In this document: positions 44,480 through 64,000 of the stretch, in pieces
Numbering within the stretch: position 1 is the first letter of the stretch
Layout: the number at the start of each line of letters is the position of its first letter
Assembly: GCA_964349125.1 (NCBI GenBank)
Contig: CAYGFH010000001.1
Coordinates: 562,107 to 626,106, forward strand
DNA: 64,000 bases
Reading direction: 5' to 3'
Source of the DNA: an uncultured Gammaproteobacteria bacterium
GTDB lineage: Bacteria > Patescibacteriota > Microgenomatia > UBA10105 > UBA927
Notes under the pieces: model-generated
Seen by the model: only the letters and a program-made list of their open reading frames with translations
Told to the model about the DNA's origin: nothing
The model's database searches: none
Program-made: the position numbers and the translations under genes

Positions 44480-45460
44480 TTATTTTCCCAACAAAAGTGT
44501 GATCAGGCCAATAATTGTATCTTTTTTTGATGGGGCACTTTCTGCAATCAGAAGCGTTAATACAGTGAGTGCATCTGGAGAAAGTTTTTTAGAATCAAGG
44601 CGTTTTGCCCGATTTAAAAACCACACAAAGGCAAACGCACCAGAGCGTTTATTCCCATCAATAAACGGATGATTCTTTACGATAAAATACAGCAGGTGTG
44701 CTGCTTTTTCTTCAATACTTGGATACACATCTTCATCATTAAATGATTGGAGGATATTTCCAACGATTCCTTCAATTGCCTGCTTTGTTCTTTCTACAGC
44801 AAACAAGTCACTCGCCTCGCCTTTTCGAATCAATTCTTTCTTTAGAAGCTCAATACTACCAAGTAAATCGCCAGAAGTTACAGCTAGAGTTTTTTTAGTA
44901 ACTCCAACTCCAGTAAATACACCTCTGTCGTATGCATCCAAAGAAAACCAGGTGTGTGCAAATTCTTTTATTAGATCTATTACTTTCTTTGAATCTATCT
45001 CTGTGGAACCAGGCAGCAATGTCTGTATCTCAGTAACTGATTTCATAAACGCATCGTAATTCTTCGCGATTCGTTTTCGATTGATCGTATATCCATTGGT
45101 AATATGATCACGCAACGTTTTGGTTGCCCAAATACGAAATTGTGTTGCCCTTTTGGAATTTACTCTATATCCGACAGATATAATCATATCTAGGTTATAG
45201 TGATTCATCTCACGCTCAACATTTCTTGCTCCTTCTTTTTGAACTATCCGGAAATTCCGGAGAGTTGACCGTTCTTTAAGCTCAGAATCTGAATAAATGT
45301 TGAGTATATGCTCACTCACAGTCCTTATGTCGATATCAAATGCAGAAGCGATTTGCGCCTGTGTTGCCCAAATGGTTTCATGTGTGACATCTCCTCGGAG
45401 TTCTATTGCCCCGTTTTTCGCCTGATAAATAATTGGCTGCTGAACCACTTTCTGTTTCAT
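44480..45460 (-). CDS. RhuM-family protein with C-terminal Fic/Doc domain
   Basis: RhuM-type N-terminus (IIYQAKNGAIELRGD...ETIWATQAQIA) and the Fic/Doc core motif HPFIDGNKRSG. Confidence 0.7.
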   Translation of the reverse strand: MKQKVVQQPIIYQAKNGAIELRGDVTHETIWATQAQIASAFDIDIRTVSEHILNIYSDSELKERSTLRNFRIVQKEGARNVEREMNHYNLDMIISVGYRVNSKRATQFRIWATKTLRDHITNGYTINRKRIAKNYDAFMKSVTEIQTLLPGSTEIDSKKVIDLIKEFAHTWFSLDAYDRGVFTGVGVTKKTLAVTSGDLLGSIELLKKELIRKGEASDLFAVERTKQAIEGIVGNILQSFNDEDVYPSIEEKAAHLLYFIVKNHPFIDGNKRSGAFAFVWFLNRAKRLDSKKLSPDALTVLTLLIAESAPSKKDTIIGLITLLLGK

Positions 45461-45561
45461 ACAAAATTAGTATATCACCACTTTTTATAATACATTTCAT
45501 CGCGACGAATCTTGAGCTTATCAAAGGGATGACACTAAAAGCATATAGAATATATATTTAA

Positions 45562-46710
45562 TTATTTTCTTTCAGAAAATATATTGAGATATTCTTTATA
45601 GAGATAAGATTGACCATACGTTATATCAGTATCTTTTGGAGAAAGAATATTCATCTCAATAAATCGATTAATCACCTCTTGAGAACCAGGTCTGCTAAAG
45701 CCAGTCCATTGTTGAATAACTGCCACATTTATAATTGGCTGCGCAAAGAGTTTAGGCATAACGAGCATCGCTGATTCCGCAGCACGTTTGCCTAAATTCT
45801 GAATCTTCATCATATCCTGCTCGCGGAGTTTTGTAATCTTGTCTACCGTAATAATAGCTTCATTAGCAATTTCTATAACACCATCAAGGAAAAAATCTAT
45901 CCACGAAACAACATTACCATTGTGATAACTAGTTAATTTTTCATAATAGACTTCTTGATGTCTTTTAAAATATGAAGAAAGGAAAAGAACAGGGCTTTCT
46001 AGAAAATGCTCATGCCACAGGAAAAAGGTAATAAGCATTCTGCCGGTTCTTCCATTTCCATCTAGGAAAGGATGAATAGTTTCAAATTGAGCATGCAATA
46101 TACCTGCTTTAATTACAGTAAGTAAGTCATCATTCGCATAAAAATATTTCTCCAATTCATCAAGCGCTTGTTTCATTTCTTCTACAGGTGGTGGAACATA
46201 TCTAGCGTTATCTGGTCTTGTACCACCTATCCAATTTTGGGTTTTTCTAAACTCACCAGGATCTGCGAAATGTGTAGCTCTGGCTTTACTCATAAGTTCC
46301 TTATGTAATTCCCTCAAAAAACGGAGTGAGAATGGAAAATTTTCCTTCTTCGCCCTGTCCATACCGTATCGAAGTGCAGTAATATAATGGAGAATATCAT
46401 CCACATCAGCAGGGACATTTGTGTTTGTTTTTACTTCCGCTTCGATAGCGTCAATCATAGTGGCCATGGTACCTTCAATCTGGCTTGAAGCGGCGGCATC
46501 TTTTCGCAAATACATCAGGAGAAAGAAATCCAAATCTGGAAGTAATTTAGTAATTCCATCAAGCTTGCCGACGAGTCTTGTAGCCTCACTGGCTTTTTTA
46601 ATAGTTGTGCCGTCAAAGATAAATCCACCTTCGGGAGGAAACTGAGCAGGAATAAATGCTTTAAAACCTTGAGGTTGTTTTCGCAAAATTCCGATCGTAT
46701 TGGCGTCCAT
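45562..46710 (-). CDS. Fic-family protein (adenylyltransferase-like)
   Basis: Canonical Fic motif HPFLDGNGRTGR. Confidence 0.85.
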   Translation of the reverse strand: MDANTIGILRKQPQGFKAFIPAQFPPEGGFIFDGTTIKKASEATRLVGKLDGITKLLPDLDFFLLMYLRKDAAASSQIEGTMATMIDAIEAEVKTNTNVPADVDDILHYITALRYGMDRAKKENFPFSLRFLRELHKELMSKARATHFADPGEFRKTQNWIGGTRPDNARYVPPPVEEMKQALDELEKYFYANDDLLTVIKAGILHAQFETIHPFLDGNGRTGRMLITFFLWHEHFLESPVLFLSSYFKRHQEVYYEKLTSYHNGNVVSWIDFFLDGVIEIANEAIITVDKITKLREQDMMKIQNLGKRAAESAMLVMPKLFAQPIINVAVIQQWTGFSRPGSQEVINRFIEMNILSPKDTDITYGQSYLYKEYLNIFSERK

Positions 46711-53433: not shown

Positions 53434-53919
53434 TTATTGAATAAAGAATATACACAGTCCAGCGTAAATTAATCCAAAAACAATAGGAATATAGAGTTCA
53501 ATATGAGAAAAAGGGAAATATTTACTATTATCTTTGCCTTCTCCCAAAATTTTCCACTCATTTTCATAAAGAGCAATTGGAAGCCTTTCCTCTATTTGAT
53601 GTAATACTTTAAACTTCCCGGTATTTAACTGCTTGTAGGAACGAATTAAAAACCAAAAAATTATGCTGATTATTACTCCAATAGCGGAAAGTAAGATATA
53701 TACCCATTTCGATTCCTGGAAAAATTCGATTTGAGTAGATAAGCCAATTATTGAAATTAAAGCTGTATTTATTGTTAAAAAATAGCTGTTTGCACTCTGT
53801 CTTCTATCGCTTGTTTTTTCAATGCTTTCTACATAAAGCTTATATTGGTCAAATAAATGTTCCTTATAACTCTCTCCATAATTCTTTTCTGATTCTGTAA
53901 ATAATTGATTATTTTTCAT
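53434..53919 (-). CDS. Small 3-TM membrane protein, last gene of the hsd-linked operon (candidate effector)
   Basis: 161 aa with three hydrophobic helices. Its start is 2 nt after the stop of the TIR-like gene. Confidence 0.4.
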   Translation of the reverse strand: MKNNQLFTESEKNYGESYKEHLFDQYKLYVESIEKTSDRRQSANSYFLTINTALISIIGLSTQIEFFQESKWVYILLSAIGVIISIIFWFLIRSYKQLNTGKFKVLHQIEERLPIALYENEWKILGEGKDNSKYFPFSHIELYIPIVFGLIYAGLCIFFIQ

Positions 53920-53921
53920 AG

Positions 53922-54299
53922 CTACCTATTGCCTGCAATTAAAGATTTGATATTATCCCAAGTCCATCGATATGTTTTATCTAATCCTACTGGAACAGGA
54001 CAACTCTTATTTGCATACCCGTGAATGCCGAAATGGGGAATACCAGCTTGAATAGCCATCTGAATCTCTTTAAGCACCCCTTCGCACGCATAGGTATATG
54101 GGCCTACCATAACAATAAAAATGTCACATTGAGAAATCTTCTCGTAGACTCTTTGTTCCCAATTTCTTTGAGCAAATGGTTCTTTAACAGACCAATCAGC
54201 GATTTCAAAAGGAGTGTCTGAATTTCTTGCCTGACCTACAATGGAATCTCTTAAAAATTGGTCATTATCAAAGTCAAAACTTATAAATGCTCTTTTCAT
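53922..54299 (-). CDS. TIR-like domain protein (ThsB/DUF1863-like)
   Basis: N-terminus MKRAFISFDFDND resembles the ThsB/DUF1863 KRVFFSFHYxD start. Downstream segments W...CDIFIVMVGPYT...GVLKEI..A...GIPHFGIHG fit the same family. Confidence 0.5.
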   Translation of the reverse strand: MKRAFISFDFDNDQFLRDSIVGQARNSDTPFEIADWSVKEPFAQRNWEQRVYEKISQCDIFIVMVGPYTYACEGVLKEIQMAIQAGIPHFGIHGYANKSCPVPVGLDKTYRWTWDNIKSLIAGNR

Positions 54300-54304
54300 A
54301 TTCT

Positions 54305-55828
54305 CTACTGCATTCTTTTATTAATAATTACTTTCAAATCATCAATTACCTCGTAACACATATCATCATTCAGTTTTTCAGTAGTATTAAAGTATTCTTT
54401 TGGATGAACGAAATTCCTTTTCTCTCTAATCTTGTCTGCTCTCCTAATTAAATCCTCATCAAAAATTTGTGTATGAACTTTTTTCAATTTCCATAGTAAT
54501 TTCCCAAGTGTGAAATCTTCTGTATCGGGTGAAAAATAATCTTTTTTCTCTACTTCACTCATCCAGTCTAAGAGAAAGGCTTCCAAAACTGAACCTGAGA
54601 GTATTAGAAAGGATTTATAGAGCTTTTTATCAATGCATGTGTTCAATTCCTTTAAATCTCCTTGTATAACCTTCTCAATAACATCTTTTTTAAACATCCG
54701 TAGTACTTCTAATTCTTCAATAATAAATTCCCGTTGAATGGGTTTATCGGGAGTGGCATCATCAAACAATTCCTTATTTATGGCTTGAATAACATCAACT
54801 TTATCTTTTAAGAAAAGTGTCTTGAATACACTCTCTGATTTCTGTTGAGTAATCTTATCAGGCAAGATAACTGGTAACTCTAGTAAATCTTTCGACCTTA
54901 TATGAGGAAAAAAAGTGCCTCTTTGAAATAATTGAATATATTTCATCACAGTCTCACTTTGAAGATAAAGAAAAAGATATTCAGGTGTGATTTCTTCCGA
55001 TTTTGGTCTAATTACTACTAAAAAAGTGGATGAAAAGATAGATTCCTTGAAATCGTCAGTAACGAGATAAAATTTCTTGTTTCCTGAAAATGAATCTGAG
55101 AATAAAATATCTCCTTTTTGTAATCTAATTGTAGTCTGTTGTTCTTCTGAAAGGTCTTTAATACTTAATGGATAGACAAAGTCTTTAGTTTTAATAACAT
55201 GCCCTTTGGAGCCTTCGAGCTTACGAGGTCGTAGTATCTCCGCCAATTCTTTTAATGCCTTAGTTTTTTCTTGCTTTAGCTTCATTAATGCCTGTCGAGA
55301 ATCTGGCTCGTAAAAGCTGATTTGAAGATTATCTAAGTCGATTTCTGAATAATTAAGTTTCCAAATGCTACGGCTTTCATCAGTTGCTTGATTGATAGTG
55401 TCGTTATTAATTGTATTTTCTAAACTAGAAATATAATCTTTGTATGACTTCGTAATTTGTTGTTCACCAATTATTCCAGATTTTCTATAGTCGAGCTTAC
55501 CAGTAAATGTCTCCTTTGAAAGATACTTACTGAAATACACATGCTGAGGCTTACCTTTTTGAATAACTAAAAGTATAAACTTAACATTTGTTGCTGGTTT
55601 CCAAATTTCAGCTAAGTCGAAAATTCCATTAATATACCAGTCATTAAATATTCTTTGCCTTGAATTTACTTCTTTAATTGAATGTAAAAGCATCACTGGA
55701 ACAACTAATCCAACTTTCCCACTATCTGTATTCAATTTAGAGGTTATATATTCTGTTTCAGAGTTTTTTAAACCTGATATCGGATAACTTTTTCGTTCCT
55801 CAATTAATTCCTGAATATCAATTTTCAT
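54305..55828 (-). CDS. HsdS-like protein (degenerate TRD / conserved-helix architecture) fused to an uncharacterised ~170-aa C-terminal domain (possible HEPN-like Rx6H)
   Basis: Central segment ...FLVVIRPKSEEITPEYLFLYLQS...LLELPVILPDKITQQK resembles an HsdS TRD plus the conserved LPLPPLEEQ region. The C-terminal REKRNFVHP is suggestive only. It overlaps hsdS by 11 nt. Confidence 0.45.
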   Translation of the reverse strand: MKIDIQELIEERKSYPISGLKNSETEYITSKLNTDSGKVGLVVPVMLLHSIKEVNSRQRIFNDWYINGIFDLAEIWKPATNVKFILLVIQKGKPQHVYFSKYLSKETFTGKLDYRKSGIIGEQQITKSYKDYISSLENTINNDTINQATDESRSIWKLNYSEIDLDNLQISFYEPDSRQALMKLKQEKTKALKELAEILRPRKLEGSKGHVIKTKDFVYPLSIKDLSEEQQTTIRLQKGDILFSDSFSGNKKFYLVTDDFKESIFSSTFLVVIRPKSEEITPEYLFLYLQSETVMKYIQLFQRGTFFPHIRSKDLLELPVILPDKITQQKSESVFKTLFLKDKVDVIQAINKELFDDATPDKPIQREFIIEELEVLRMFKKDVIEKVIQGDLKELNTCIDKKLYKSFLILSGSVLEAFLLDWMSEVEKKDYFSPDTEDFTLGKLLWKLKKVHTQIFDEDLIRRADKIREKRNFVHPKEYFNTTEKLNDDMCYEVIDDLKVIINKRMQ

Positions 55829-56930
55829 AATTATTTTTCTTGAATGTGTTTTGCATCAATGATTGGAATTGATTATCTAATTCTCGAGACTGCTCAAGCA
55901 TTTTTTGCTTAAGTACTTCAGTGTCCTTAGCAATCATTGCAAAGTCATCTTGTAACTCTATAGGTGGAATAATCATTTTAATTTTTTCAAATTCACCCTT
56001 AGTAAGAATTCTTTTCATACCTCTGGTCGCATGGTCTTGAATATATGTTCTAGAATTTCTTAAAAGCCAGTACAAAAATAAAGAGTTTATCTTTTTATTA
56101 GGCTGAATAGCATTAATTTGTTGATTGAATGACACTTTTCTATCAGCAATTGCAACTCGCCCAATAGATGCAATGCTACCAGCAATACAAGCCATTAGAA
56201 CTGCTCCAGACGTAACAAATCTAGCCTTATTTAGGCCGTTCTCCGATAGATATTCGCTAGCATTAGTTATATACAGATTTTCTTCTACAATATTGTCAGT
56301 TTTTATCCATTCAATAAATCTGGATGAATAATTGTCTTTTTCATTGCGAGAAGGAGTATTGCCAGTTATTATTTCTCCAAAGGACTTCAATTCCGACTTC
56401 TCCCAACTTTTCGAGTTAGAAATTGGGTCTCCAAACATTTCTATAAAGACTGACTTTATGTATTCATCTAGTAAGCCTGTTGTCTGCTTCCGCTTTTGTC
56501 GAAGGGCTTCGGCTTTGTCTAGGATATTTACAATATTTCTTTGTTCAGTGATTGAAAGCAAGGGTATTTCGGGGTCAGTTAAATTGTTTAATTTAATATA
56601 TTTAATCACTCCTCCAATAGATAATTGTCTCAATTTTTCTACATATTTAAATAAAAACCAATAAAGGTATTTTGTATCTAAAATCGTCTCATCTAAGCTC
56701 TCAATAATATAAGTTCTTTGATAGGCATCAAACTTTCCTTCATAGTACTTCACATTTAAGTCTCCGTTTCCAGCGACTAGCACACATTTGCAGTCATAAG
56801 TATAGGAGTTGATTTTGTATGTATCTTTAGAGCAAGTAAAAAAAGGGTATGCGCCATCATCAGAGCCCGCATTAGCATCCAGCTTACCTGTTTTAATTTT
56901 TGTTAATCTTCCAAGTTGACTAGTATTCAT
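55818..56930 (-). CDS. hsdS: Type I restriction-modification specificity subunit HsdS
   Basis: Two TRDs separated by a conserved central helix, an HsdS-type N-terminus and a 4-nt gap to hsdM. Confidence 0.8.
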   Translation of the reverse strand: MNTSQLGRLTKIKTGKLDANAGSDDGAYPFFTCSKDTYKINSYTYDCKCVLVAGNGDLNVKYYEGKFDAYQRTYIIESLDETILDTKYLYWFLFKYVEKLRQLSIGGVIKYIKLNNLTDPEIPLLSITEQRNIVNILDKAEALRQKRKQTTGLLDEYIKSVFIEMFGDPISNSKSWEKSELKSFGEIITGNTPSRNEKDNYSSRFIEWIKTDNIVEENLYITNASEYLSENGLNKARFVTSGAVLMACIAGSIASIGRVAIADRKVSFNQQINAIQPNKKINSLFLYWLLRNSRTYIQDHATRGMKRILTKGEFEKIKMIIPPIELQDDFAMIAKDTEVLKQKMLEQSRELDNQFQSLMQNTFKKNNYEN

Positions 56931-56933
56931 ACT

Positions 56934-58445
56934 CTACTTTAGCTTTAAAAGACCATCCATAATTTCTTTTTCCAGTTTTTCAATCTTTTCTAATATTATT
57001 TTTGGCGAGTCATATTTGACCTCCTTATAATCGGCATCCTTGTAACTATTGATGCTTAGGTCGTATTTATTTGCTTCTATTTCTTTTCTAGGTACAAAAA
57101 AGACTTTTTGTTTACGATCAGTATCAGTCTGCTGATTTCTACTTTTCCATTTGCTAATAATGTCTGGAATATCGTTATCTGTAATTCTTGCTCTTTTATC
57201 ATCAAGACTATAGCCATCTGATTGCATATCGTAGAACCAGATACTTTCTGTGCTTCCACCTTTTACAAATATCAAAACTGCGGTGCTCACCCCTGCATAA
57301 GGCTTGAATACTCCTGATGGCATGGAAATTACACCTTGAAGCTCACAATCATCAATCAGCATCTTTCGCAAATTCTTGTGAGCGTTTGAAGAACCAAAGA
57401 GGACACCATCTGGAACAATAACGCCAGCTCGGCCACCAATCTTGAGGGATTTGATGATTCGGTTAATGAAAAGTAGTTCTGTTTTAGTTGTCGGAAGAGA
57501 TAGTGACTCATTGATATCACCCTTATCAATACTTCCTTTGAATGGAGGATTGGCCATGATGACATCGAAATAGTTGTCTTCATCATATTTTTTGGACAAC
57601 GTATCTTTTTGTTCTATGTTTGGAATTGAAATACCATGCATCATTAAGTTCATGAGGCCAATACGAACCATACTGTCGTCCATGTCATAGCCGTAGAATG
57701 TTTTTTCTTTAAGTTGTTTCCATTGGCGTTCATCAGTGAGTTTGTCGCCTAATAGTCCGCGGGTAAGGTCATTTTCATCAGTGGTTTGGTGCTCCTTACT
57801 GGTGTGAGCAGTCAAGATATGCTGATAAGCACCTAAGAGGAAACCACCAGTCCCGCAGGCGGGATCACAGATTGTGTCACCAAGCTTTGGGTCGACAAGT
57901 TCGCAGATGAGCTGGATGATATGTCTTGGGGTTCTAAATTGACCTAATTTACCGGCACTCGTTATTTCTGCAAGCAAATGTTCGTACACATCACCCTGAG
58001 TATCCTGAAATCCTTGTCCTTTTTGTTCTTGTTGAGAAATTTCTTCATAAATTTCATCGATGATGTTGATAGACTCCACAACTAACGAAGGTTTGGAGAT
58101 AATGAACACTGCATTTCCCATGTGTTTCGAGTAGGCGCTATTTTCGGAGTTTAGATTTTTAAGGAAAGGAAATACTTTTGTTTGAATGTGGGTCAGCATC
58201 TCACCACCTTCCAAGTGCCGGAAGTGACTCCAACGCATGTTTTCATTTTCACCTGCAAAAATTGACTTGTAGGATTCACCAGTAAATTCAGAGTCATGCA
58301 TCTTCTTTAAATCCATTTGATCAAGCCGTTTCATGAATAGTAGATATGAAATCTGTTCTATGGCGGTGAGTGGATTAGAAATTCCACCACTCCAAAATTT
58401 ATCCCATAGCCGATCGATTGATGATTTGATAGTAGTGTTAAGCAT
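56934..58445 (-). CDS. hsdM: Type I restriction-modification N6-adenine DNA methyltransferase HsdM
   Basis: HsdM N-terminal domain with the catalytic motif IV NPPF (IMANPPFKG) and motif I DPACGTGGFL. Confidence 0.9.
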   Translation of the reverse strand: MLNTTIKSSIDRLWDKFWSGGISNPLTAIEQISYLLFMKRLDQMDLKKMHDSEFTGESYKSIFAGENENMRWSHFRHLEGGEMLTHIQTKVFPFLKNLNSENSAYSKHMGNAVFIISKPSLVVESINIIDEIYEEISQQEQKGQGFQDTQGDVYEHLLAEITSAGKLGQFRTPRHIIQLICELVDPKLGDTICDPACGTGGFLLGAYQHILTAHTSKEHQTTDENDLTRGLLGDKLTDERQWKQLKEKTFYGYDMDDSMVRIGLMNLMMHGISIPNIEQKDTLSKKYDEDNYFDVIMANPPFKGSIDKGDINESLSLPTTKTELLFINRIIKSLKIGGRAGVIVPDGVLFGSSNAHKNLRKMLIDDCELQGVISMPSGVFKPYAGVSTAVLIFVKGGSTESIWFYDMQSDGYSLDDKRARITDNDIPDIISKWKSRNQQTDTDRKQKVFFVPRKEIEANKYDLSINSYKDADYKEVKYDSPKIILEKIEKLEKEIMDGLLKLK

Positions 58446-61248
58446 GTTGGAAAATTTGATTCGTAAAGTTTAATATTTCAAACTGCATTGATTTATCAAA
58501 TAATCCCAAGATTCCATTTTCATGAATTTTGGTAAATGGCTCCTGAACCAAATCTTTCTTGGTTAGTGATCCATTCTCGATAATAAATGTTTGCAGAGTC
58601 TGTAAAAATTGAATCTGCTTGGAACTTAAGGTATTGTGATCAGCGATGAATTCAGCAAATGCCACTGACACTTTTTCTGGAAAAGTTACTAGGCCACCAA
58701 TCCCCATAATGTATTTAATTAAATCAAGAAATCTAACTTGGCGGGCATCATAGGCTTTTTGAAGGTTTTCTTCGGTTGGATATGGTTCGTATTCAGCGAG
58801 TGTTTGAGCCAACTCATCGATTTCTTCACCAGTAATGCTGTCACCGTTTTTAATCCTTCTTAAAGTATCATTTTCCTCTTCTAATTTTTTGATCAATGCT
58901 TCAACTTTTTCGCGATACTTTTGAATAGTCACACGCTCATTGGCGGGACCAAATTTGATATACATTTTTTCTGAGGTTATATCGCGCAAATCAAAGGCAT
59001 CCTGACTTGGCTTAATACCTTCCTCTCGATACTTCATGAGAGGAGCTATTCGATCAATCAAAACATCAAGGTCGGCATCCGTGGCTTTAGCTAGATATCC
59101 GCTATGTAGCACTTCCTCAATCAAATCCTTTTCGTTGGCAACCACATTAACAGTGAGCGGTAAGTCGGATACCATTTCAATCAACACATTTTCGAGCGCA
59201 CTGACTTTCTTTTCTTGATTGTCAGCTTGAGAAAATTTGGCAATCGAATACTGCATGACTTTTAACTCAAAACTCATTGCCTTGTAGTCCTCACCTGTCC
59301 GCGTTCTCATAAGTGGTGCAATGTCTTTTTGAAGTAATGCGAGTTTGTCTTCATTTAGTCGTGCCCAAAATTGTTCATCGAGCGCATCGAGGGTATTTTT
59401 TGCGTCAAGGATAATCACATTATTTTCAGGCAACTTTTTAACCTCGTCCTTTAGTTTTTGGATGGTTGTTTGAATTAGGACTTCATCACTTAGTGATTGG
59501 GCGACCGAGAGTTTTTCGAGCTTGGTTTCAAATAACCTGACTGGAATCGGTTTGGATTGACGATCAATCTTGCCTTTAGGATTCATTTCAAAATAATCAA
59601 AGTTTTCCCAACAATCCATTATTAAGAACTTATCTTTTTGGGTGCACCAAGGCTTAAGTTTCTTTGGCTCTAATATGCGGGTGCCACGACCAATCATTTG
59701 CCAGAATTTGGTATACGAAAAAACAGGTTTGGCAAAAACAAGATTGACCAATTCTCGAACATCAATTCCGGTATCAAGCATATCAACACTGATGGCGATT
59801 CTTGGGAAATCATTGTTCACAAACTGATCAAGCAAGCCACCTTTACCGTAGACTCGAGAGTCATCTGAAACGATCACTTTAGCAAAATTACCTTTATGTT
59901 CTGGGTATAAGTCATCGAAAATTTCTTGAAGCCGTCTCGCGTGCTTCATGGTCATAGCAAAAATAACGGATTTACCAGGGAGTGTTCCGCTATTATCTTT
60001 TATGGATTCTTCCATGAATTCCTGTACGATCAGTGCATTGGTTCCACGATTCGTGACCTTTTTTTCGAGATCAGTGCCCTCATAGTTTATTTCTTCTGGT
60101 TCTTTTCCGTCTGAAATCAGCCGCTGTTGCTCTGCGAGTGAAATATTAGTTTTTCTAATGCCTTCCTTTTGAAATTTTGTGCGGATTTTGAGTACTTCAA
60201 AGTCACTCAGATACGGCGGTTTGTTGTTGATAGCTTCTTCGTATGAATATGCATATGTCGGCAGACCATCATCACAATTAAATAGACTGAAAGTGTTATG
60301 TTCTACTGCATCTTTTGGCGTAGCCGTTAATCCAAGTTGGACTGTGTCAAAATAATCAAAAATGTTTTTGTAGACGTTATAAATCGAACGGTGACTTTCA
60401 TCAGCTACAATCAAATCAAAGAAGTGTGGACTAAGTGGACAGTCTTTATTCTCAATGATATTTAACATGGTTGGATATGTCGCAGAATAGATACGTCTAT
60501 CTGTTGCGATTTCAGTCTCCCCAATTTTTGGCCAAACTGGGGCATTAGGGATATATTCCTTAAATGCGTCTAGAGCTTGATTACGAAGCGCAATTCGATC
60601 TACAAGAAATAATACTCGTTGAACTCTATTTGTTCTCATTAGAACATCCATCATGGCAGCGCATGTTCTTGTTTTTCCGGTTCCAGTAGCCATAACAAGC
60701 AAGGCTTTTCTTTTACCTTTATCCATGTTTTCAAATACAGAACGGATTGCTTCAATCTGGTATGGGCGACCAGCTATATCACGATTAATTAATTCTTGAG
60801 AAATTGGCTTCTGATTTTTTCTTAAAAAGAGTAGTCGTTCTAAATCTTTTTTGGTGGGGAATCCATAAACTTTTCGAGGCGGGAATTTTTCTGTGTCCCA
60901 GAAATAAATATCATTGCCATTGGTGTAGAAAACAAACGGCATATCTTTGCCAGAATTCTTTTGAATGTTAACTGCATATTGTCTGGCTTGTTCCTGTCCT
61001 ATACGAGCATCCCTTGAAGTTTTTTTTGCCTCTACAACTGCCAAAGGATATCCATCATCACCGAGTAATACATAGTCAGCAAATTGATGTCCTTGATATT
61101 CGGATTGCTGCTCTCTAACTCCTTCAGGCAATCCGATCCATATATCCAATTCTGATGTGACATGAGAAGGATCATCTACATCCCATCCAGATTTCAGTAA
61201 GCGCTTATCAATTATTTCTTTTCTAGTTAATTCTTCACTCTTATACAT
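58438..61248 (-). CDS. hsdR: Type I restriction enzyme R subunit HsdR
   Basis: N-terminal nuclease region and SF2 helicase motifs (LVMATGTGKT, DESH in IVADESHRS). About 936 aa. Overlaps hsdM by 8 nt. Confidence 0.9.
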   Translation of the reverse strand: MYKSEELTRKEIIDKRLLKSGWDVDDPSHVTSELDIWIGLPEGVREQQSEYQGHQFADYVLLGDDGYPLAVVEAKKTSRDARIGQEQARQYAVNIQKNSGKDMPFVFYTNGNDIYFWDTEKFPPRKVYGFPTKKDLERLLFLRKNQKPISQELINRDIAGRPYQIEAIRSVFENMDKGKRKALLVMATGTGKTRTCAAMMDVLMRTNRVQRVLFLVDRIALRNQALDAFKEYIPNAPVWPKIGETEIATDRRIYSATYPTMLNIIENKDCPLSPHFFDLIVADESHRSIYNVYKNIFDYFDTVQLGLTATPKDAVEHNTFSLFNCDDGLPTYAYSYEEAINNKPPYLSDFEVLKIRTKFQKEGIRKTNISLAEQQRLISDGKEPEEINYEGTDLEKKVTNRGTNALIVQEFMEESIKDNSGTLPGKSVIFAMTMKHARRLQEIFDDLYPEHKGNFAKVIVSDDSRVYGKGGLLDQFVNNDFPRIAISVDMLDTGIDVRELVNLVFAKPVFSYTKFWQMIGRGTRILEPKKLKPWCTQKDKFLIMDCWENFDYFEMNPKGKIDRQSKPIPVRLFETKLEKLSVAQSLSDEVLIQTTIQKLKDEVKKLPENNVIILDAKNTLDALDEQFWARLNEDKLALLQKDIAPLMRTRTGEDYKAMSFELKVMQYSIAKFSQADNQEKKVSALENVLIEMVSDLPLTVNVVANEKDLIEEVLHSGYLAKATDADLDVLIDRIAPLMKYREEGIKPSQDAFDLRDITSEKMYIKFGPANERVTIQKYREKVEALIKKLEEENDTLRRIKNGDSITGEEIDELAQTLAEYEPYPTEENLQKAYDARQVRFLDLIKYIMGIGGLVTFPEKVSVAFAEFIADHNTLSSKQIQFLQTLQTFIIENGSLTKKDLVQEPFTKIHENGILGLFDKSMQFEILNFTNQIFQHA

Positions 61249-61289
61249 AATTCAGGGAATAGAATATTAAAATTACTTGACAGACATGA

Positions 61290-61507
61290 CCAAATTATAC
61301 TCCCCTCACGCACAAATTACGATCAGATATGTTATGTATTACCGAAGTTAACGCTCGGCCCATCCGATGATTCAGAACCTCCCATCCTAGCCTCAAATCT
61401 AGCTGTATCACCCACTATTTCCTTGATTTTTATACGCTCGAGCGTGAGAAAATCAAGAGCGCTTCCGATTCACTGGTACGTACTCAACCACCTCGGAGGT
61501 GGAAAGG
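61290..61507. repeat. Copy 1 of a ~220-bp direct repeat immediately upstream of hsdR
   Basis: Near-identical to the copies at 62281-62519 and 63272-63490. Contains the 36-bp imperfect palindrome CTTGATTTTTATACGCTC|GAGCGTGAGAAAATCAAG (61422-61457), a CCACCTCGGAGGTGG palindrome, and a TATAAT on the minus strand pointing at hsdR. Confidence 0.8.
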
Positions 61508-61547
61508 TATGTAATTTTGTTTATGGTTTTTGAACATTAATGGGTAA

Positions 61548-62273
61548 TTATTGGGAATTCTTTGGAAGTAATTCCAACAATGTGCTGGAAATTGTTCCCA
61601 CCTGATCTGAAGTTAGCACCATTGGATTTTCTTGAATTGATCTCAATAGCCATTTGGAACCTATAACCAATACCCCATCGATCGGCTTCATGCCAAAACG
61701 CAACACTGCATACGGACTAGAGAAAACTAAAATTGGCTTAATTCGTGGGGAAACAATATTTTTGTTATGTAAATAATCATCCAATCGGATGGCACTCCCA
61801 CGAGATTGTTTCAAAAAACCTCCTTCAAAAATCCCATGCACATACAGCTTATTGTCGCTATAACATATATTCCCCACATGACTTTTCACTTCCAATGCAA
61901 ATACTCCGGTCGGCCCAATGACAACAAAGTCTATATTCGAGGTCAATGGCGGAATTATTAAATTTTCTATGATCACATATTCATGAGACAATTGAAGGAG
62001 TACAGCTCGAACATCCGCCTCCCCGCCCAAACCTCTTGCCAATCGTCGCAATTTCCATAACGTTCTTTCAATTGGACCACGCATGATGATATAGAAAATT
62101 AATAGCAAGCTTCCTGCGATATTTGAACCAAGATGCGGAAATCCAAATGAGAACAAATACACCCAATATGTAATTATTGCGACAAAGAATATATACACGA
62201 GAAACAGACCATCAGTTTTGTGAGAAAATTTTTGTTCAATAAGATAGATATCTTTACCGTATATCTTTGCCAT
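61548..62273 (-). CDS. NERD (nuclease-related domain) protein with two N-terminal TM helices
   Basis: NERD signature GLGGEADVRAVLLQL...NIDFVVIGPTGVFALEVKSH. Confidence 0.75.
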   Translation of the reverse strand: MAKIYGKDIYLIEQKFSHKTDGLFLVYIFFVAIITYWVYLFSFGFPHLGSNIAGSLLLIFYIIMRGPIERTLWKLRRLARGLGGEADVRAVLLQLSHEYVIIENLIIPPLTSNIDFVVIGPTGVFALEVKSHVGNICYSDNKLYVHGIFEGGFLKQSRGSAIRLDDYLHNKNIVSPRIKPILVFSSPYAVLRFGMKPIDGVLVIGSKWLLRSIQENPMVLTSDQVGTISSTLLELLPKNSQ

Positions 62274-62280
62274 ACTAAAA

Positions 62281-62519
62281 CTATACTCTCCCCATTCACA
62301 AATTACACTTGAGAAAGATCAAGTGTAAACGATCGGATGTGTTATGTATCACCGTAACTCAAACCAGGCCCTTCCGATGAGTTAGAACCGCCCATCCTAG
62401 CCTCAAATCTAGCTGTATCACCCACTATTTCCTTGATTTTTATACGCTCGAGCGTGAGAAAATCAAGAGCGCTCGGGTCCTCGTACTGTGTGATGCTCAC
62501 CTCGAAGGTGGCAAAAGTA
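62281..62519. repeat. Copy 2 of the ~220-bp direct repeat (upstream of the NERD gene), with a 20-bp palindromic insertion CACTTGAGAAAGATCAAGTG
   Basis: The core CCATCCTAGCCTCAAATCTAGCTGTATCACCCACTATTTCCTTGATTTTTATACGCTCGAGCGTGAGAAAATCAAGAGCGCT is identical to copy 1. Confidence 0.8.
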
Positions 62520-63254
62520 TTAGTTTCCGAGTAGTTTGATGATTGCTTCGAAGTGATCTGAACCTAAGTTTTTTTTCGAAAGATAGACGCCCCTGGGATT
62601 CTTATGTTTCACGTAATACGGATAGTCTGTTAATTCCGGAACAGCTTTAATCCAAAATCGTTCCATCCGAGTCATAATCACGTAAGCTTTCTTTTTCATT
62701 AATTCTCTCAGAAGATAAAACGTATAGTTTTGAGATTCAGGATACTGATCAGGATATAGAAGGCGTTTAGATCTATACGGGAAGTATTCCATAAATAATA
62801 CTTTGTTTGCCACATTTTCCCAGTTTAAACCTATATGTTCATGTAATCCTCGGGTATGCATCCAATACCAGCAGCGACTAGCTGTTCCATCTGTATAAAC
62901 CCATTCCCTATATTTTGGTGTCATTGAGTAAATCCCAGGAGTATTTAAATGAAATAAATTCTTATAATCAAGGTCCATAATGTCTTGGTAGTCAGGTCTT
63001 AATGACAATTTTGAATCATGGCCGGGATTTGCCTGTAATACTATAACTTTTGCAGTATGTGGATTACCGAAATATGGAAATGGTATATCCTCTGTATGTA
63101 ATGAATACGTGTCGATAATTTTATTTTTCTTTTCTTCACCTGAATATCTGGAAACGATTTTCTGTAATTTCTTTTGATATTCTAAAACCCACTCCTGATC
63201 AACATCCAAAATATATGGTTGTCGTTTGCTGAGTGTATTCCATGGATTTTCCAT
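62520..63254 (-). CDS. Hypothetical protein (244 aa) between two repeat copies in the defence island
   Basis: ORF with no recognisable motif. Its upstream region carries repeat copy 3. Confidence 0.35.
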   Translation of the reverse strand: MENPWNTLSKRQPYILDVDQEWVLEYQKKLQKIVSRYSGEEKKNKIIDTYSLHTEDIPFPYFGNPHTAKVIVLQANPGHDSKLSLRPDYQDIMDLDYKNLFHLNTPGIYSMTPKYREWVYTDGTASRCWYWMHTRGLHEHIGLNWENVANKVLFMEYFPYRSKRLLYPDQYPESQNYTFYLLRELMKKKAYVIMTRMERFWIKAVPELTDYPYYVKHKNPRGVYLSKKNLGSDHFEAIIKLLGN

Positions 63255-63271
63255 AATTACATTAATTTTCT

Positions 63272-63490
63272 CAAATTATACTCCCCTCACGCACAAATTA
63301 CGATCAGGTGTGATATTTTCACCGAAGTAAACGTTCGGCCCTTCCGATGAGTCAGAACCGCCCATCCTAGCCTCAAATCTAGCTGTATCACACACTATTT
63401 CCTTGATTTTTATACGCTCGAGCGTGAAAAAATCAAGAGCGCTGCGATTCACTGGTACGTACTCAACCACCTCGAAACCGAAAGATGTTT
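63272..63490. repeat. Copy 3 of the ~220-bp direct repeat
   Basis: About 90% identical to copy 1 by eye over its full length. Confidence 0.8.
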
Positions 63491-63517
63491 CAACAAATAC
63501 TAAATCTTTGTTATTTG

Positions 63518-63625
63518 GCCTCGTTTTTGAATGCCACCTCGGAGGTGGAAGATGATCCGCAAGAATTTTAAAATTCACCCCAAATTTAGCCTCGTTTTTT
63601 ACTACCACCTCGGAGGTGGAAGTTG
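63518..63625. repeat. Two 37-bp direct repeats (GCCTCGTTTTTGAATGCCACCTCGGAGGTGGAAGATG and GCCTCGTTTTTTACTACCACCTCGGAGGTGGAAGTTG) separated by a 34-bp spacer. Each contains the CCACCTCGGAGGTGG palindrome.
   Basis: Seen directly. A degenerate third unit lies at about 63465-63488. Confidence 0.6.
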
Positions 63626-63667
63626 AAATAGGATTATCCCTAGACTTACGACAGCGAAGCGATAGGT

Positions 63668-64000
63668 TTACCGTGATAATCTCAAAAGTTCTTGTGTGAG
63701 TGACGTCATGTCCAATATCCTCTTCCCGTCTACTACCTGTGCCGTGGAATACAGCACCCTTCGAATTGCTTCGGGATCTCTTCCTACAACCTGGGCAATT
63801 GCGCAGCACGCGGCAGATACATATGGGGCCGCAGCCGAGTGAGACTCAGGCACGACTCGTTTATATCCACGTACAGGTATTTCTATTTCTCCGGGTGCAT
63901 ATATATCAATTCTCTGCTCGTCATTCGATTCGATAAATTGTCCCTTCTGAGTGATACCTCCCACCACTACTGTGTTGGAAAAGAATCCATAGGAATCATC
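63668..64000 (-). CDS. Subtilisin-like (S8) serine peptidase, C-terminal part; 5' end lies beyond the window
   Basis: The frame is open to the window edge. DIYAPG (subtilisin D-I-V-A-P-G) and the Ser-region SHSAAAPYVSAACCAIAQV (subtilisin GTSMAAPHVAGAAALI). Confidence 0.55.
   Translation of the reverse strand, partial: DDSYGFFSNTVVVGGITQKGQFIESNDEQRIDIYAPGEIEIPVRGYKRVVPESHSAAAPYVSAACCAIAQVVGRDPEAIRRVLYSTAQVVDGKRILDMTSLTQELLRLSR

Follow-up and report, generated by a model that had tools for sequence, protein, structure and literature searches.

The DNA analysed here, the window, is a stretch of 64 kb (64,000 nucleotides) from contig CAYGFH010000001.1 of assembly GCA_964349125.1, deposited as an uncultured Gammaproteobacteria bacterium; it was examined together with a locus, L001, that reaches ∼ 9.3 kb past the window end (the plus strand of L001 is the minus strand of the window, and window position = 73255 − L001 position). 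Homologues of several window proteins are labelled Patescibacteria, Gottesmanbacteria or Levybacteria, and the host is therefore a bacterium of the Candidate Phyla Radiation (CPR). Towards the window end lie three direct repeats (copies 1 to 3; 215–240 bp, 81–93% identity), each 5′ of a gene of a defence island, and it is the nature of these repeats that we consider here.

All window features given below are on the minus strand. Copy 1 precedes hsdR (58438–61248), the first gene of a type I restriction-modification operon that continues with hsdM (56934–58445) and hsdS (55818–56930). Copy 2 precedes a gene for a membrane-anchored protein of 241 aa (61548–62273) in which a domain scan found a NERD domain. 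Copy 3 precedes a gene for a 244-aa protein (62520–63254) that belongs to no Pfam family and gives a weak, sub-threshold match to the NCBIfam model of the Brig1 anti-phage DNA glycosylase (E = 5.6e-5, 22.7 bits, cut-off 230). Upstream of these, the 3′ end of a gene for a subtilisin-like (S8) peptidase (63668–64000) is cut by the window end. Along the direction of transcription the island contains, in order, radC, a 245-aa transposase gene (see below), a 107-aa membrane protein, a 362-aa NERD protein, a 101-aa open reading frame (ORF) and the S8 peptidase; it continues with copy 3 and the 244-aa gene, copy 2 and the 241-aa NERD gene, and copy 1 and hsdR-hsdM-hsdS, after which come an HsdS-like protein of 507 aa, a ThsB-like TIR protein and an 8xMP membrane protein.

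The original prediction, made from the sequence by eye, was of three ∼ 220-bp direct repeats in front of hsdR, a NERD gene and an unknown gene, and repeat search, gapped alignment and a second assembly all bear it out. A 145-nt repeat family (61319–61463, 62329–62473 and 63299–63443; ungapped identity to copy 1 of 90% and 81%) is extended by flanking families of 45 nt and 30 nt. In gapped alignment, identity is 92.7% between copies 1 and 3 (205 nt) and ∼ 90% between copy 2 and either of them (145 nt). The arrangement is not an assembly artefact, because locus L022 of ERZ27247817, assembled independently from another sample, matches it at 100% identity along 6168 bp, a stretch in which copies 1 and 2 lie. 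Nor are the repeats part of a longer duplicated segment that contains the genes themselves, the outcome that had been named as fatal to the prediction, since the NERD protein and the 244-aa protein are unrelated (BLASTP E = 5). BLASTN of the repeat unit against phage and plasmid collections gave no match.

Each copy can be divided into a GC-rich palindrome, a core of 107 nt with a 36-nt imperfect palindrome, and a promoter-like segment. Copy 1 (61291–61502) fills the entire spacer between the NERD gene and hsdR; its core lies at 61357–61463 (palindrome 61422–61457) and its promoter-like segment, GATCGTAATTTGTGCGTGAGGGGAGTATAATTTG (61291–61324), contains TATAAT at 61294–61299, with the ATG of hsdR 45 nt downstream. 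Copy 2 (62277–62511), which separates the 244-aa gene from the NERD gene, has its core at 62367–62473 (palindrome 62432–62467) and TATAGT at 62280–62285, 6 nt ahead of the ATG. Copy 3 (63272–63485), upstream of the 244-aa gene, has its core at 63337–63443 (palindrome 63402–63437) and a promoter-like segment at 63272–63305, in which TATAAT (63275–63280) stands 20 nt ahead of the ATG. The details depart in places from what had been predicted for every copy. The GC-rich palindrome is intact in copy 1 (CCACCTCCGAGGTGG, 61488–61502) but has two mismatches in copy 2 (62497–62511), and in copy 3 (∼ 63468–63485) its left arm is gone. The ending GAGGGGAG-TATAAT is exact in copies 1 and 3, whereas copy 2 reads GGGGAGAG-TATAGT. 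Copy 2 does hold an extra palindromic element, but this is not an inserted perfect palindrome of 20 bp: a 24-nt insertion between GATCG and TAATTTG forms, with adjoining bases, a 26-nt hairpin (62303–62328; 10-bp arms, 6-nt loop; z = −4.7 as single-stranded DNA, ssDNA) that has no second occurrence in the window or in any fetched locus.

The GC-rich palindrome was misread as part of the 220-bp unit alone. It is a repetitive extragenic palindromic (REP) element, tied to a gene for a HUH tyrosine transposase resembling REP-associated tyrosine transposases (RAYTs) ∼ 3 kb past the window end. The palindrome CCACCTCSGAGGTGG (≤ 2 mismatches) occurs 11 times within 6.3 kb of L001 (5506–11767), where 0.02–0.1 copies are expected from shuffled sequences; there are zero copies in L001 1–5500 and in the window from 1 to 61000. 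All 11 copies sit between genes or at gene ends, and the hairpin they form as ssDNA has z = −2.9 to −3.8. Most are arranged as doublets spaced 61–71 nt, in which the first member carries a conserved 20-nt tail, nAGTAAAAAAyGAGGCTAAA; the intact REP of copy 1 is of the second-of-doublet type, without this tail. Two first-of-doublet units with the tail, 71 nt apart, occupy 63513–63626 (hairpins 63534–63548 and 63605–63619). Each REP is self-complementary, and the two partners of a doublet show no consistent inversion of the central base (C or G).

The transposase gene (245 aa; L001 5592–6329) adjoins radC and is bracketed by REP doublets at L001 5506/5567 and 6286/6348. Its 3′ end runs through a REP, which encodes the last residues of the protein (PPATSEVAVKNEAKVQ, then the stop codon). 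The protein matches the NCBIfam family REP_Tyr_transpos below its cut-off (E = 1.6e-12, 47.5 bits versus 80) and also matches Pfam Y1_Tnp; the HUH motif P-N-H-x-H and the tyrosine motif R-Y-x-H-x-N-P are invariant across 26 homologues. A profile search of the PDB placed 4ER8, the E. coli REP-associated transposase with a bound REP hairpin, first with a weak E of 0.04. When the confidently predicted structure (pLDDT 84.5) was compared by Foldseek, 4ER8 again came first (E = 1.4e-8, TM 0.69), about four orders of magnitude ahead of the TnpA proteins of IS608 (∼ 1e-4) and ISDra2. The family has > 6600 members, most of them in Patescibacteria. Homologues with 45–80% identity have this REP on their flanks in all eight related loci examined, from at least six assemblies (L002/L003/L014, L010, L015, L021, L025, L006 and L024). 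In two of these loci (L006 9873–10774 and L024 8466–10710) the REP is a variant, ACACCTCGGAGGTGT, with A-T in place of C-G as the outer pair of the stem on either side, a compensatory exchange, and L006 retains the 20-nt tail, AAAAAATGAGGCTAAATTTG, although its transposase is only 57% identical. The REP-plus-tail pattern is found on 3 and 5 contigs of two related metagenome-assembled genomes (MAGs), including positions between ordinary genes, so that in principle REPs can also lie outside the island; an exact-pattern scan of viral contigs gave 0 matches.

REP, BIME (bacterial interspersed mosaic element) and REPIN elements with RAYTs have been described in Enterobacteria and Pseudomonas, and REPs flanking a Y1 transposase gene, the features found here, define REP-RAYT systems (Bertels and Rainey, 2011, PMC3116915; Bertels et al., 2017, PMC5581495). 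The present locus shares with those systems short GC-rich extragenic palindromes, mostly in doublets, that flank a Y1/HUH transposase gene whose product has a predicted fold best matched by the E. coli enzyme, TnpA-REP; the conserved synteny of radC, the RAYT-like gene and a NERD gene in three genomes is likewise as for a domesticated gene. It differs in its host, which belongs to the Patescibacteria/CPR, a group for which a full-text literature search found no report of REP-RAYT; in its protein, of 225–245 aa rather than 165 and scoring below the NCBIfam cut-off; and in its repeats, each REP being a self-palindrome of 15 nt and the first of each doublet having the conserved tail. Unlike REPINs, the doublets do not obviously form one long hairpin, and the copies are packed into one 6-kb defence island within 74 kb instead of being dispersed.

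The 3′ end of each copy is, on comparative grounds, a well-supported candidate for a promoter common to related genomes. Alignment of the three copies with the homologous spacers of two relatives, L003 and L010, gives the order first REP with tail, spacer, second REP, variable body and a conserved block of ∼ 50 nt. This block (∼ 45–50 nt, GATCGTAATTT-N11-GAG-TATART) stands upstream of other defence-type genes in the two related genomes: in L003 (8727–8762) 36 nt of it are 100% identical to copies 1 and 3 while the shared genes are only 66–75% identical, and in L010 it is present twice (L010a and L010b). The genes behind it are unrelated and comprise hsdR, the 244-aa gene, NERD genes, an L003 gene without a Pfam match and a 331-aa gene, the last of which immediately precedes a type I hsdR and matches a restriction endonuclease only below threshold. 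The claim of a portable promoter can thus be upheld, as far as conservation before other genes in two relatives and the spacing in copy 2 can tell, for the 3′ ∼ 50 nt. The modules of L003 and L010 lack the core and its 36-bp palindrome, so the promoter evidently needs no core.

The genome appears to be largely leaderless. Among 65 window gene starts, 20 have a −10-like hexamer 6–8 nt before the ATG, versus 2.3% of all ATGs (odds ratio 29, p = 5e-19), with sharp peaks of the distance at 6 and 8 nt; a Shine-Dalgarno-like motif is present in only 8 of the 65. The spacings in copy 2 (TATAGT-N6-ATG), L010a (N6) and L010b (N8) are those of the genome norm, and it is because copy 2 fits this leaderless pattern exactly that we regard the putative promoter as well supported. 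In all three copies AG precedes the hexamer, which fits the RGTATART seen before other window genes. The position that a 17-nt spacer would give a −35 hexamer holds TCGTAA, not TTGACA, and the conserved GATCGTAATTT occupies −37 to −27. The G-rich tract and GATCGTAATTT ahead of the box set these island promoters apart, and a weaker version stands before the island genes of the more distant L023; exact-pattern scans with the promoter pattern gave 0 matches in JGI metagenomes and viral contigs. The start of hsdR is without a Shine-Dalgarno motif. At 61249–61290, a mini-ORF of four codons (ATG TCT GTC AAG TAA) follows the copy 1 box at the leaderless distance, TATAAT-N6-ATG.

The 107-nt core is of a different kind. 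It is 95–97% identical among the three copies, and its flanks in copy 2 are unlike those in copies 1 and 3 (5/23 identical in the 23 nt to the left, 6/14 in the 14 nt to the right). The imperfect palindrome predicted for each copy, CTTGATTTTCTCACGCTCGAGCGTATAAAAATCAAG, has three occurrences (≤ 1 mismatch) and none elsewhere in the 64 kb, with 0.00 expected from shuffles. It consists of outer arms of 9 bp and a perfect 12-bp centre, ACGCTCGAGCGT, and folds as ssDNA into a 9-bp stem, a 3 × 3 internal loop, a 4-bp stem and a tetraloop (−9.2 kcal mol−1, z = −2.7). This hairpin is the only fold common to the three copies; folding of whole units gave z-scores of +0.7 and −0.8, and an apparently compensatory outer helix keeps 5 of its 8 pairs in copy 2, an outcome with an estimated chance of ∼ 14%. 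A complex RNA structure was set aside on these figures. The 64 kb gave no Rfam match at gathering thresholds, and positions 61200–64000 gave none at E up to 10. As a diverged REP-plus-tail the core aligns no better than shuffles do (p = 0.02–0.7). As protein-coding sequence it was rejected as well: it has no Pfam match, and among 1.84 billion proteins the only matches were the copy-3 ORF of the query itself and Big_2/LRR-like proteins, the latter through summed weak repeats. Its ends, AGCGCTCTTG and GGAAGGGCC, are not inverted repeats, and no duplicated target is seen in copy 2 relative to the flanks of copies 1 and 3, as would be sought for a miniature inverted-repeat transposable element. 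Exact-pattern scans with core 22–24-mers gave 0 matches in viral contigs, GTDB genomes and JGI metagenomes.

The CPR genome thus carries a REP-RAYT system to which a conserved block, a putative leaderless promoter, is joined in a defence island of cassette-like make-up, plus an orphan 107-nt hairpin element. We propose, with a probability of roughly 0.6, that the three copies are REP-delimited, promoter-bearing spacers of this variable island and that they are built as a three-part mosaic. Each copy would make up all of the spacer between two defence genes that are transcribed separately, and would join three elements with different histories. The 5′ part would be a REP hairpin of the family found on either side of the RAYT-like gene, whose product presumably acts on it; in the present clade, nearly all gaps between island genes would have come to hold REP doublets. 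The 3′ part would be a promoter of ∼ 50 nt, with GATCGTAATTT at about −37 to −27, the G-rich tract at −20 to −13 and RGTATAAT as −10 box, which may start a leaderless mRNA (copy 2) or an mRNA with a short leader and no Shine-Dalgarno motif (copies 1 and 3) for the next gene. The middle part would be a lineage-specific core with its imperfect hairpin, copied into all three spacers. Transcription is predicted to start at the 3′ block, and the hairpins might end or stabilize the upstream transcript.

Comparison of islands suggests how such spacers could have multiplied. The block of radC, the RAYT-like gene and the 362/363-aa NERD gene is syntenic in three genomes, and the content downstream of it differs gene by gene. 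The islands of relatives differ by whole genes bounded by REP doublets; the 107-aa gene, for example, is present only in L001, between two doublets. The promoter and the ∼ 10 codons that open the gene behind it are common to copy 2 and L010a, whereas the encoded NERD proteins are only ∼ 35% identical, and we therefore read the module as a recombination junction. The simplest account, judged from these alignments, would be gene-by-gene replacement by recombination within the repeated spacers, and the three copies may have arisen as genes were added or swapped one at a time through recombination or gene conversion inside them. The other possibility raised in the original prediction, that the copies could be scars of cassette-type acquisition, would agree with the gene-by-gene differences between islands.

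Several observations weigh against this proposal. It leaves the role of the 107-nt core unexplained. The −10 boxes of copies 1 and 3 stand 45 and 20 nt from the annotated ATG and not at the usual 6–8 nt, and the box of copy 1 would start the four-codon mini-ORF ahead of hsdR. There is no acceptable −35 hexamer, and a scan with the sigma-70 consensus does not call these sites. The hairpins of the units have no T-runs behind them and are therefore not classical terminators, a role we had considered and ruled out. Finally, the counts of REP, core and promoter apply to the 74 kb covered (the 64-kb window and its flank), out of a source contig of ∼ 810 kb (ENA ERZ27247837 k141_2193826, 809 kb).

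The core could instead be a small, non-autonomous, hairpin-dependent single-strand mobile element, REPIN-like or resembling a palindrome-associated transposable element of the IS200/IS605 kind, that was inserted or converted into the three spacers, its position next to defence genes being incidental. Its identity ends sharply, the absence of terminal inverted repeats and target-site duplication is what HUH/Y1 transposition predicts, the imperfect hairpin begins 8 nt from the left end of the core, and a Y1 transposase gene lies 4–6 kb away; absence of the core from related genomes is compatible with a recent gain. Abrupt boundaries, ends free of terminal repeats or target duplications and a hairpin close to the left end would in fact be equally compatible with gene conversion. 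However, the only three known copies all lie inside 2 kb at an identical relative place in the module, the core hairpin is unlike the REP that flanks the RAYT-like gene, the right end has no hairpin, no pair of empty and filled sites was found, and none of the collections searched (phage, plasmid, viral contigs, GTDB genomes and JGI metagenomes) holds a copy. We hold this explanation to be possible but on balance unlikely. Neisseria Correia elements offer a related precedent, being intergenic repeats that carry outward-facing promoters. As with those elements, a repeated intergenic unit of 100–250 bp here gives a −10 box to the downstream gene; unlike them, the units have neither terminal inverted repeats nor target duplications, the promoter block and the core have separate histories, and three copies are known.

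A promoter-operator module, in which one regulator would bind the 36-bp palindrome and co-control the three defence genes, was the reading first put forward, and we consider it rather improbable. The palindrome is strong, nearly invariant in the three copies and unique within the 64 kb, although identity between copies can stem from recent copying rather than from selection. Outside this genome, a small, controller-like helix-turn-helix (HTH) gene (MerR/HTH_17 or HTH_3) occupies the place of the module before hsdR in two of the three loci examined (L026 and L028), in CPR genomes whose hsdR homologues have 88–89% identity; here that gene is missing and the module stands instead. Homology to the window starts exactly at the ATG, and apart from this small gene the upstream regions of the homologues are uninformative about the module. 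An operator role for the palindrome is not supported. The palindrome is missing from the homologous modules of L003 and L010. Between its end and the downstream −10 box lie not ∼ 110 nt, as first estimated, but 123 nt in copies 1 and 3 and, through the 24-nt insertion, 147 nt in copy 2; this distance varies, and it is too great for the promoter to be blocked. The flanks were to be checked for a regulator or an integrase: no regulator or HTH gene was found among the genes scanned (L001 157–1035 and 2996–9587; window 41–64 kb), and Pfam scans of genes across L001 and window 41–64 kb found no IntI or other integrase, the Y1 transposase being the only recombinase-like gene. In some restriction-modification systems, a controller (C) protein has its operator in a palindrome upstream of the restriction genes. 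The palindrome upstream of a restriction gene here, and the small HTH gene before close hsdR homologues elsewhere in the CPR, recall that arrangement; in contrast to it, there is no C gene, the palindrome lies at the distances given above from the −10 box, and it also precedes two genes outside restriction-modification.

Less probable still is that the palindromes and REP doublets are crossover sites of a dedicated, integron-like site-specific cassette system, with the repeats as integration junctions of circular cassettes. Direct repeats around single genes are what single-crossover integration of a circle with one module would yield, three related islands differ by whole genes between REP doublets, and the island always starts beside the RAYT-like gene. 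Ordinary homologous recombination between repeated spacers gives the same pattern, however; neither an integrase nor a serine recombinase was found in the 74 kb, REP doublets also lie between ordinary genes on other contigs of related MAGs, and RAYTs are known for spreading REPs rather than for moving genes. Integron gene-cassette arrays can carry defence genes, and have a single shared Pc promoter, an IntI integrase and an attI site. The island resembles them in its run of single, unrelated defence genes in one orientation, in the related hairpin-forming repeat between genes and in a content that varies cassette by cassette among relatives, but it has no IntI or attI, and each gene has a putative promoter of its own in place of one Pc. 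A bolder version seems to us equally doubtful, in which the RAYT-like transposase and the REP doublets would form an integron-like gene-capture platform beside the radC-RAYT anchor, single defence genes would each travel with a REP doublet and a standard leaderless promoter block and would be gained, exchanged or lost singly, the repeats would mark the latest insertion junctions and the 107-nt core would be a site of recombination or single-strand processing.

That the core is transcribed, as a structured element of a 3′ or 5′ untranslated region or encodes a micropeptide, such as a leader ORF of 17–27 codons (VGDTARFEARMGGS...) that modulates expression, is very unlikely: a sense-strand frame is open in all copies, copy 2 keeps frame and stop despite 14 substitutions in 30 nt with mostly conservative changes (V/L, F/Y, D/E, N/D), and GAGG-N5-ATG and AAGGA-N4-GTG stand ahead of candidate starts, but the ORF preserved in copies 1 and 2 is frameshifted in copy 3, the antisense frame is open too, and the Pfam, protein, Rfam and folding searches described above yielded, beyond the hairpin, the copy-3 ORF itself and spurious repeat proteins.

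If the copies are indeed REP-delimited promoter spacers, they would explain how newly gained defence genes could be expressed immediately in a reduced, largely leaderless genome, and how the defence island could turn over gene by gene. REP-RAYT systems are known mainly from Proteobacteria, with REPs scattered over the genome. Here a hairpin and an enzyme of that kind occur in a tiny CPR genome, where the REPs cluster in a defence island and are linked with a promoter block whose sequence is retained in front of changing genes. The promoter motif and the leaderless start rule should also be useful for annotation in this uncultured lineage.

Some further observations concern the genes of the island and its relatives. 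hsdR is 78–89% identical across distant CPR lineages (Levybacteria, Peregrinibacteria, Pacebacteria and Moraniibacteria; loci L026, L027 and L028), and such identity between very different lineages suggests that the gene has spread horizontally and recently. In L001 (8089–8632), a short ORF (MANLETNDLGR...) and the 101-aa ORF jointly resemble a single 181-aa gene of L010 (2579–3124), whose counterpart is, by this comparison, probably disrupted in the source genome. Loci L010–L019 (GenBank CAYSEV01... and CAYHHA01...) come from two MAGs titled 'uncultured Gammaproteobacteria bacterium' that have the same radC/RAYT-like/NERD synteny and the same REPs as found here; both belong to the present Patescibacteria clade, and their titles are probably wrong.

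Two neighbouring genes with Fic domains, one of them fused to RhuM, lie at 44480–46710 in a stretch of low GC content (0.37–0.40), and in the island of L006 a RhuM-Fic gene is likewise found, beside the RAYT-like gene. The 507-aa protein behind hsdS (54305–55828) contains a single HsdS target-recognition domain together with a weak N6_Mtase fragment, and its gene overlaps the end of hsdS by 11 nt. The ThsB-like TIR protein (125 aa) is followed directly by the 8xMP membrane protein (161 aa; Pfam E = 1.3e-42) at 53434–54299, and the two genes may be a defence pair right behind the type I restriction-modification operon.

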